Below are positions 1,274 through 3,391 of a stretch of DNA of 64,000 nucleotides, one piece after another. This stretch comes from Escherichia coli (GTDB lineage Bacteria > Pseudomonadota > Gammaproteobacteria > Enterobacterales > Enterobacteriaceae): the NCBI RefSeq assembly GCF_003334355.1, contig NZ_QOWP01000006.1, one strand, 5' to 3'. The number at the start of each line of letters is the position of its first letter. Within the stretch, counting starts at the first letter, position 1. The notes under the pieces were generated by a model that saw only the letters and a program-made list of their open reading frames with translations, was not told where the DNA came from and did no database searches. A program made the position numbers and the translations under genes.

Positions 1274-3391
1274 ATGAGTGAAGGACCAGGCGGGCCACAG
1301 GGAGCGACCGCAGGCGGTACGCTGGCAATGCGAATGCTGTCACAGCAGGCGATGGTCGCCAGCCAGATGAAACGGGCAGCCAACGACAAAGCCATTGCAC
1401 AGATGCTGGCAGCAAAGAAGTCCGGCCCACCTGCCGCCAGGCTGGGCGATGAAATTCAGCATAAAAGTTTTCTGGGGGCACTGGCAGGGGCCGTGCTGGG
1501 GGCGATAGTGACCATCGCAGAAGGTTGCCTGATTATGGCCGCCTGCGCCACCGGCCCTTATGCGCTGGTTCTGGTGCCTGCGCTGATGTATGCCAGCTAT
1601 AAGGCGAGTGATTATGTGGAGGAGAAACAGAACCAGCTTGAATCATGGATAAACAGCTTTTGTGACACGGACGGCGCCATCAATACCGGTTCTGAAAATG
1701 TAAACATTAACGGAAAGCCCGCTGCAAGGGCCGCCGTCACCCTTCCCCCTCCTCCCCCACCTGGAGCAATACCTGAAATCCCACAGGGGGAACCCTCATG
1801 GGGTGATATTGCCACTGACCTGCTTGAATCGGCAGCGGAAAAAGCAGTACCACTGGCGAAGGCCTGGGGGAACGCTGTTATCACCCTGACGGAAAGCAAT
1901 GCCGGTTTTATGGATCGCGTCAGCGCCGGCGCATCGCTTCTGTTTCCCGCCGGTCCGGTATTAATGGAGTTTGCCACCATGGTGGGCGGGCGTGGCGAAA
2001 TCAAAAAAGATGTGGATTTCCCGGAAGCCGGTGAGGACACGGCGCTCTGCGACAAGGAGAACAAACCACCGAGGATAGCCCAGGGCAGTAGCAACGTCTT
2101 TATCAACAATCAGCCTGCCGCGCGCAAGGGCGACAAACTGGAGTGCAGTGCGGCGATCGTGGAAGGTTCGCCGGACGTCTTTATTGGGGGTGAGCAGGTC
2201 ACCTATCTGGATATCCAGCCGGAGTTCCCGCCATGGCAGAGAATGATCCTGGGAGGAATAACGATAGCCAGCTATCTTCTGCCGCCAGCAGGACTGCTGG
2301 GAAAACTGGGGAATCTGGCGAAACTGGGCAAACTGGGAAACCTGCTGGGGAAAAGCGGGAAGCTGCTGGGCGCAAAGCTCGGCGCGTTGCTGGGGAAAAC
2401 AGGTAAGTCGTTAAAAAGTATTGCCAATAAAGTCATCAGATGGGTAACAGATCCTGTCGATCCGGTAACCGGCGCGTACTGCGACGAACGTACCGACTTC
2501 ACCCTGGGCCAGACCCTCCCCCTCTCCTTCACCCGTTTCCACAGTTCGGTACTGCCACTGCATGGCCTGACGGGCGTGGGCTGGAGTGACTCCTGGAGCG
2601 AATACGCCTGGGTGCGTGAACAGGGAAACCGGGTGGATATCATCAGCCTGGGAGCCACGCTGAACTTCGCCTTCGACGGTGAAAGTGATACGGCGGTTAA
2701 CCCGTATCACGCCCAGTACATTCTGCGCCGCCGTGATGATTATCTGGAGCTGTTCGACAGGGATGCACTGAGCAGCCGCTTCTTTTATGACGCCTTTCCG
2801 GGAATGCGTCTGCGCCACCCGGTGACTGACGATACCAGCGATGACCGCCTGGCACACAGCCCCGCAGACCGGATGTACATGCTGGGCGGGATGAGCGACA
2901 CCGCCAGCAACCGCATCACGTTTGAGCGCGACAGCCAGTACCGGATCACGGGTGTCAGTCACACCGACGGGATCCGGCTTAAACTGACGTACCACGCCAG
3001 CGGCTACCTGAAAGCCATTCACCGCACGGATAACGGCATACAGACGCTGGCGACCTACGAACAGGATGCGCGGGGGCGGCTGACAGAAGCGGATGCGCGG
3101 CTGGACTACCACCTGTTTTATGAGTACGACGCTGCGGACCGGATCATCCGCTGGTCCGATAACGACCAGACGTGGAGCCGTTTCACCTACGATGCACAGG
3201 GCCGGTGCGTGACCGTCACCGGGGCGGAGGGCTATTACAACGCCACGCTGGACTATGGTGACGGCTGCACCACCGTGACGGACGGCAAGGGCATTCACTG
3301 TTATTACTATGATCCTGACGGCAATATTCTGCGGGAAGCAGCGCCGGACGGGTGGAGAAATTTGAATACAACGCCGCACACGATCAGTTAA
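1274..3391 (+). CDS. rhs: prePAAR/PAAR-Rhs T6SS effector, N-terminal segment (prePAAR motif, TM helices, PAAR, first YD repeats); reading frame breaks near 3350
   Basis: 705-aa ORF; AARLGDEIQH fits the prePAAR motif AARxxDxxxH; hydrophobic stretch follows; PAAR-like GKPAAR and NQPAARKGD segments; YD-repeat core begins; frame ends 3391 while the continuation is in another frame. Confidence 0.8.
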   Translation: MSEGPGGPQGATAGGTLAMRMLSQQAMVASQMKRAANDKAIAQMLAAKKSGPPAARLGDEIQHKSFLGALAGAVLGAIVTIAEGCLIMAACATGPYALVLVPALMYASYKASDYVEEKQNQLESWINSFCDTDGAINTGSENVNINGKPAARAAVTLPPPPPPGAIPEIPQGEPSWGDIATDLLESAAEKAVPLAKAWGNAVITLTESNAGFMDRVSAGASLLFPAGPVLMEFATMVGGRGEIKKDVDFPEAGEDTALCDKENKPPRIAQGSSNVFINNQPAARKGDKLECSAAIVEGSPDVFIGGEQVTYLDIQPEFPPWQRMILGGITIASYLLPPAGLLGKLGNLAKLGKLGNLLGKSGKLLGAKLGALLGKTGKSLKSIANKVIRWVTDPVDPVTGAYCDERTDFTLGQTLPLSFTRFHSSVLPLHGLTGVGWSDSWSEYAWVREQGNRVDIISLGATLNFAFDGESDTAVNPYHAQYILRRRDDYLELFDRDALSSRFFYDAFPGMRLRHPVTDDTSDDRLAHSPADRMYMLGGMSDTASNRITFERDSQYRITGVSHTDGIRLKLTYHASGYLKAIHRTDNGIQTLATYEQDARGRLTEADARLDYHLFYEYDAADRIIRWSDNDQTWSRFTYDAQGRCVTVTGAEGYYNATLDYGDGCTTVTDGKGIHCYYYDPDGNILREAAPDGWRNLNTTPHTIS

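Follow-up and report, generated by a model that had tools for sequence, protein, structure and literature searches.

Why is the Rhs effector gene of an Escherichia coli chromosomal island read in two overlapping frames: is the gene dead, is it recoded during expression, or is the break an error of assembly? The question was raised by a stretch of 64,000 nucleotides (nt) of the E. coli chromosome (contig NZ_QOWP01000006.1; hereafter the window), in which a putative type VI secretion system (T6SS) effector gene of the rhs family is divided between two open reading frames (ORFs), termed ORF1 and ORF2. The effector gene was found to be, very probably, a pseudogene whose split arose once by a slippage deletion, as a second hit after a frameshift in its toxin domain. 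The pieces of the gene, in window coordinates, are listed below.

1274-3391, plus strand: rhs fragment 1 (ORF1), 705 amino acids (aa), with prePAAR, a hydrophobic region, PAAR, DUF6531 and the first YD repeats
3343-3351, plus strand: the single remaining copy of GCCGGACGG, which is the deletion junction (alignment with intact alleles; 67 base pairs, bp, gone)
3352-5724, plus strand: rhs fragment 2 (ORF2), 790 aa, with the remaining YD repeats, the RHS core and the PxxxxDPxGL motif
5667-5670, plus strand: second lesion, a run of four G (G4) that is five G (G5) in in-frame alleles (comparison with S51 and FCI51)
5671-6017, plus strand: remainder of the toxin domain, read in the -1 frame, including the annotated 86-aa ORF 5757-6017 (three-frame translation and S51 alignment)

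The split is a 67-bp deletion between direct repeats

The original prediction, made from the DNA letters, had described two overlapping ORFs with a switch of frame within 3341-3360, and both the coordinates and the frames were confirmed. The ORFs share 40 nt, with ORF2 shifted to the -1 frame of ORF1; the reading frame switches precisely at GACGGGTGGAG, and profile matches place YD/RHS repeats in both ORFs. Residues 1-693 of ORF1 correspond to residues 1-693 of the Rhs protein of E. coli S51 at 98% identity, and residues 1-776 of ORF2 correspond to residues 716-1491 of the same protein at 97% identity. The last 12 residues of ORF1 (WRNLNTTPHTIS) are out-of-frame junk, and ORF2 ends with PLRWIDPLGL (5587-5616), followed by about 18 aa of toxin domain and then an out-of-frame tail. 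Similarity had been thought to continue uninterrupted across the switch. However, alignment of intact alleles (isolate 12, H10 and NT1N34) with deleted ones (window, PSS-12 and 2022CK-00450) revealed that 67 bp are missing at this point (22 codons plus 1 nt, one YD hairpin), corresponding to STTTYEWDEFHHLLARHSPAG plus one base. Across 793-5620, the window and the intact alleles show no other indel.

In the nearest intact alleles (isolate 12, H5, 1919D62 and XYEH3934), a perfect copy of GCCGGACGG stands at either end of the segment that was lost. The gene has no further copies; the two lie 67 nt apart (gene nt 2070 and 2137 in one intact allele, L015) and in codon phases 2 and 0, so that one is read as A-P-D-G and the other as P-A-G-R. 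As about one YD repeat was removed and the copies stand at equivalent points of adjacent repeats, the YD pattern still looks continuous. Deletions between short direct repeats through replication slippage are well known from the classic lacI deletion spectra. As in those, a perfect 9-bp direct repeat flanks the loss and one copy is kept, although here the mechanism is read from the scar only. Because such repeats flank the lost segment and one copy stays at the junction, the scar carries the signature of slippage and points to a slipped-strand or microhomology-mediated event between the GCCGGACGG copies. Slippage between these copies, which sit in neighbouring YD repeats and differ in codon phase, would have taken out 22 codons and one base. 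Translation from 1274 would then reach the stop at 3391 after 12 junk residues, and the product would be a 705-aa prePAAR/putative transmembrane (TM)/PAAR fragment with neither a closed Rhs shell nor a toxin, while ORF2 would have no convincing route to translation.

A one-base indel was also considered and rejected, since an 80-nt query of the site gave the same picture with or without an extra G: many genomes gave two partial matches that together spanned 147 nt, and in most the match was limited to the left 41 nt. It had been proposed that one added or removed base would restore an ORF of about 1490 aa, but the query with the extra G matched no genome better than the window sequence did, and the intact forms actually measure 1,505 aa, where the toxin frameshift persists, and 1,603 aa, where the whole gene is intact. 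Comparison with intact orthologues, which had been suggested as a way of identifying the indel, did locate it, as a 67-bp deletion between 9-bp direct repeats and not as a single-base change. A 60-nt query across the junction was matched by intact genomes only from its base 22, which is window position 3343.

An inherited deletion allele of probable single origin

With the same 60-nt query, the junction was found in 26 of 5,426 complete E. coli genomes, all of them 100% identical over the 60 nt. These carriers derive from human, pig, cattle, pork and sewage sources and include one NCTC strain; they come from several continents, and the groups that sequenced them are unrelated. On 365 public contigs (NCBI, ENA and Logan), the 705-aa product was recorded in its exact form, down to the 12 out-of-frame residues. 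About 2,100 genomes carry the rhs gene, and apart from the 26 with the junction, all those inspected are single-frame at this site. As the junction occurs in 26 complete genomes and the truncated product on 365 contigs, the split is a genuine inherited allele and not an assembly artefact, which upholds the original prediction in its doubt about an assembly error. RefSeq/PGAP treats 1274-5724 as one "frameshifted" RHS pseudogene in strain PSS-12 and in every carrier inspected.

All ten carriers examined have A at position 3389, with G found in all seven intact alleles of the single-nucleotide polymorphism (SNP) table and in S51, and the haplotype next to the junction is common to the same ten. 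Carriers nevertheless differ from each other by up to 45 substitutions in 3352-4800, with the left half of the gene almost invariant. Recurrent independent deletions, suggested by these differences, were ruled out by the common 3389A and junction haplotype, and the divergence of the carriers is, on the alignments, recombinational mosaicism further downstream. Because the linked 3389A is present in every carrier examined, a single origin is favoured, and the pattern fits best with one deletion event that would later have been moved or partly overwritten by recombination.

Across strains, the distal Rhs core (3352-4850) is strongly mosaic, with blocks that are up to 3% divergent, and the 5' half of the core (1800-3341) is nearly invariant, with 0-3 SNPs among most alleles. 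This indicates that recombination is probably frequent and confined to the distal core.

The toxin domain carries a probably older frameshift

The original prediction overlooked a frameshift in the toxin domain, and a repaired core would still give no toxin. ORF2 ends about 35 residues past DPLGL, leaving a tail that is too short for a toxin. Three-frame translation showed the -1 frame to be open from 5652 into the annotated 86-aa ORF (5757-6017), and when the two parts were conceptually joined, many proteins of other bacteria spanned both as one highly conserved, uninterrupted domain of about 125 aa. This C-terminal toxin domain is split by a 1-nt deletion, G5 to G4, at 5667-5670. The in-frame 81-nt version with G5 was present in 16 of the 558 E. 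coli genomes with the toxin sequence, and the rest (about 540) have G4 like the window.

In E. coli S51, the 67 bp and G5 are both present and give one protein of 1,603 aa (WP_224065153.1; NZ_CP015995.1, 3444087-3448898). The S51 allele resembles that of the window in its locus, in its gene order (vgrG, DcrB-related chaperone, rhs, 95-aa ORF) and in its 97-100% identity to the three window fragments; it differs in that the 67 bp and the fifth G yield an uninterrupted ORF, which ends where the 86-aa ORF of the window ends. The latter is 100% identical to residues 1518-1603 of the S51 Rhs protein, and the 86-aa "hypothetical protein" of RefSeq (WP_000889443.1) is, judged by its sequence, the tail of the toxin.

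The core-intact alleles of 1,505 aa (H5, H10 and isolate 12) already have G4. As G4 is found in about 540 genomes, these three included, the toxin frameshift is probably older than the 67-bp deletion. The toxin would thus already have been lost through the change from G5 to G4, the 67-bp deletion would have been a second hit to a gene no longer under selection, and some descendants would then have taken further hits.

The ancestral gene and its island

Class I prePAAR Rhs effectors have near their N-terminus the motif AARxxDxxxH, as defined in PMC7773334. ORF1 has the prePAAR motif AARLGDEIQH at aa 54-63 (Pfam prePAAR_I, E=7.9e-5), followed by a region, aa 64-105, that is hydrophobic by Kyte-Doolittle alone (mean 2.13), with a weaker block at 324-342 after PAAR. 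PAAR itself is present (Pfam PAAR_motif, E=5e-10, aa 266-310, with a weak match at 132-153; NCBIfam T6SS_PAAR_dom), and both an Eag (DUF1795/DcrB) chaperone gene and vgrG adjoin rhs. A YD shell continuous up to the PxxxxDPxGL autoproteolysis motif is not found, the ORF being broken by the 67-bp deletion, nor is an in-frame C-terminal toxin followed by an immunity gene: the toxin is split by the change from G5 to G4, and the candidate 95-aa ORF for immunity is intact. In its architecture, the ancestral gene matches the class I prePAAR Rhs effectors that have an Eag chaperone. Salmonella Typhimurium Rhs1/SciW and Pseudomonas protegens RhsA/EagR1 (eLife 2020, PMC7773334) share with it the motif, PAAR, the YD-repeat shell, and upstream Eag and vgrG genes, and they have a single N-terminal TM region where the window has its hydrophobic block; unlike in those systems, shell and toxin are each frameshifted in the window, and secretion and dependence on the chaperone are here predictions. 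The other features of the island are listed below.

1-765, plus strand: 3' part of vgrG (T6SS spike), the gene starting upstream of the window (NCBIfam TIGR03361 VI_Rhs_Vgr, E=6.9e-67; VgrG in the PSS-12 annotation)
793-1254, plus strand: intact Eag-type chaperone gene of the DcrB/DUF1795 family (Pfam DcrB PF08786, E=1.7e-27; RefSeq "DcrB-related protein")
6017-6304, plus strand: 95-aa ORF abutting the end of the toxin, a probable immunity gene (position only; no family match)
7269-8405, plus strand: ISAs1-family (H-repeat) transposase gene, the end of the rhs island (NCBIfam NF033564, E=7e-122)

The island, as it would have been composed, holds vgrG, the Eag chaperone, a class I prePAAR-Rhs effector and its immunity gene between cusS and nfrB. 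The 95-aa ORF, which begins at the Rhs stop codon in S51, is a probable candidate for the immunity gene by position only. The profile search gave it no family match, and a 93-aa ORF that follows a homologous toxin elsewhere (L022) is similarly placed but has no protein similarity to it.

Could the split gene still function?

Some observations weigh against the gene being dead. Leaving the two lesions aside, neither fragment is interrupted by a stop codon, and the decay is therefore recent. The truncated fragment with its PAAR domain might still cap the VgrG spike. The look for T6SS genes covered aspV only, in PSS-12 rather than in the strain of the window. Furthermore, A_AAT_TTG at 3358-3364, a heptamer of the type at which ribosomes may slip, has a chance expectation of about 0.03 per 12 codons (base rate 0.0025 per codon).

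The first alternative to be weighed is a functional split, in which the 705-aa prePAAR-PAAR fragment would cap VgrG without a toxin, or the two fragments would reassemble in the manner of TcB/TcC, with the allele being tolerated or favoured. This was judged improbable, with a small chance of being correct. The N-terminal fragment does keep prePAAR, the putative TM region and PAAR, next to an intact Eag chaperone gene, and the allele has reached diverse backgrounds, in which the sequence further downstream is mosaic. However, no Shine-Dalgarno-like sequence precedes the GTG of ORF2 and no in-frame start lies near the ORF1 stop, 22 shell residues are gone, the toxin is separately broken, and in some carriers the N-terminal fragment or vgrG is destroyed as well. 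A usual home of T6SS clusters in E. coli is aspV, and at this one site, inspected in PSS-12, a T6SS cluster was not found, just IS1 and a truncated ISAs1.

A further possibility concerns the toxin lesion, at which low-level -1 slippage at the G run might yield traces of active toxin and so attenuate a dangerous effector; the chance of this was considered very small. The sequence ATG_GGG_T lies at 5665-5671, where a -1 slip would recreate the ancestral ...LMGVEK... toxin sequence, and G4 is the majority form of the toxin (about 540 of 558). Both lesions need a -1 shift, and at both (3358-3364 and 5665-5671) the tRNA could re-pair one base back. If such slippage were real, G4 would be more than simple decay, but the 67-bp deletion of the window would still block delivery.

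The original prediction had left open the choice between a pseudogene and recoding, and of these the evidence favours the former and gives the latter no support. Programmed -1 ribosomal frameshifting or transcriptional slippage in the 40-nt overlap would fuse ORF1 and ORF2 through the trans-frame peptide APDGWRNFEYNAAH. The required shift is indeed -1, and A_AAT_TTG is an X_XXY_YYZ heptamer in phase with ORF1 that lands in the frame of ORF2. However, this heptamer arises from the ancestral in-frame codons GAG AAA TTT GAA, which the deletion has put out of phase, and the RNA of 3358-3450 folds no better than shuffled sequence (z = -0.23, with an equal or better fold in 85 of 200 shuffles). The two-frame arrangement is also a derived one that is seldom met, in 26 of the roughly 2,100 genomes with the gene; its carriers accumulate further lesions, and a fusion of ORF1 and ORF2 would be short of one YD hairpin and, owing to the second frameshift, still without a toxin. 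Recoding was consequently regarded as very unlikely, its chance being minute. An artefact of sequencing or assembly hiding an intact gene has a negligible chance of being the explanation, for although repeat-rich rhs genes are hard to assemble and the nearby nfrB is also frameshifted, the junction and the truncated product recur in unrelated projects as described above, the linked SNP is in all carriers examined, and a lesion of 67 bp is no homopolymer error. The preferred reading is therefore that of a pseudogene, both fragments of which are presumably without function as proteins.

Further decay and neighbourhood

Additional lesions were found among the carriers of the junction. In VL40, IS421 has inserted into the N-terminal part of the rhs gene, and in O121 201805972 IS1 sits at the 3' end of that gene. 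The small ORFs downstream are gone in 81EVA, lost to IS3, and in 13P484A vgrG is frameshifted. In at least six carriers, the junction falls within a pseudogene annotated as nfrB or glycosyltransferase, a pattern suggestive of rhs-nfrB fusions in those genomes.

The window covers the cusS-copA interval and is collinear with strain PSS-12 (NZ_AP027697.1), with 32 substitutions but not one indel separating the two over 64 kb; their identity was ruled out by these 32 SNPs. Seven of the 32 are packed into 133 bp (8039-8171) at the 3' end of the ISAs1 transposase gene, a cluster that looks like gene conversion between copies of the insertion sequence (IS) rather than point mutation. Downstream of ORF2 lie two small ORFs and the ISAs1 transposase gene, followed by nfrB and nfrA. 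Between the 95-aa ORF and ISAs1, the segment 6305-7260 is AT-rich (25-38% GC) and holds small ORFs at 6432-6590 and 6595-6792, which are possibly remnants of further orphan toxin/immunity cassettes.

The neighbouring genes had been described as intact, but this does not hold for nfrB, which is frameshifted at 10241, 5 kb downstream, nor for rhs itself, with its second frameshift at 5667-5670. The gene nfrB (8676-10912) encodes a cyclic di-GMP-activated glycosyltransferase required for phage N4 adsorption, and in both the window and PSS-12 it has a 1-nt deletion at 10241 (ATGCTGATG to ATGTGATG). The lesion in 2022CK-00450 is a different one, a 5-bp CGTCG repeat expansion near the equivalent of window position 10070, and in isolate 12 the gene is annotated as "frameshifted; internal stop". 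This suggests that nfrB has been lost repeatedly and independently. In PSS-12 (1975000-2024999), a complete-looking second flagellar gene cluster (Flag-2, lateral) adjoins aspV.

Significance

The gene reads as an ordinary pseudogene, and RefSeq already flags it as frameshifted. New here are the exact lesion and the evidence for its single origin, the toxin frameshift, the intact 1,603-aa allele and the recognition of the 86-aa ORF as a toxin tail. The ORFs 1274-3391, 3352-5724 and 5757-6017 are pieces of one effector gene that is very probably dead, a result that matters little beyond annotation. The 60-nt junction is nevertheless a marker for a set of E. coli strains. In ST410, a single rhsG-tssM deletion junction has similarly been used as a marker of the lineage ST410-B/H24 (Microb Genom 2023, PMC10711316); both cases involve a unique inherited deletion junction in an rhs-associated T6SS region that was found by junction search, but there 21 kb of the machine was lost, whereas here an effector that belongs to an accessory vgrG island lost 67 bp. 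The locus, which keeps its putative immunity gene throughout, offers a small, clean case of what would be the stepwise decay of a T6SS effector island, from toxin frameshift through shell deletion to IS insertions and fusions.
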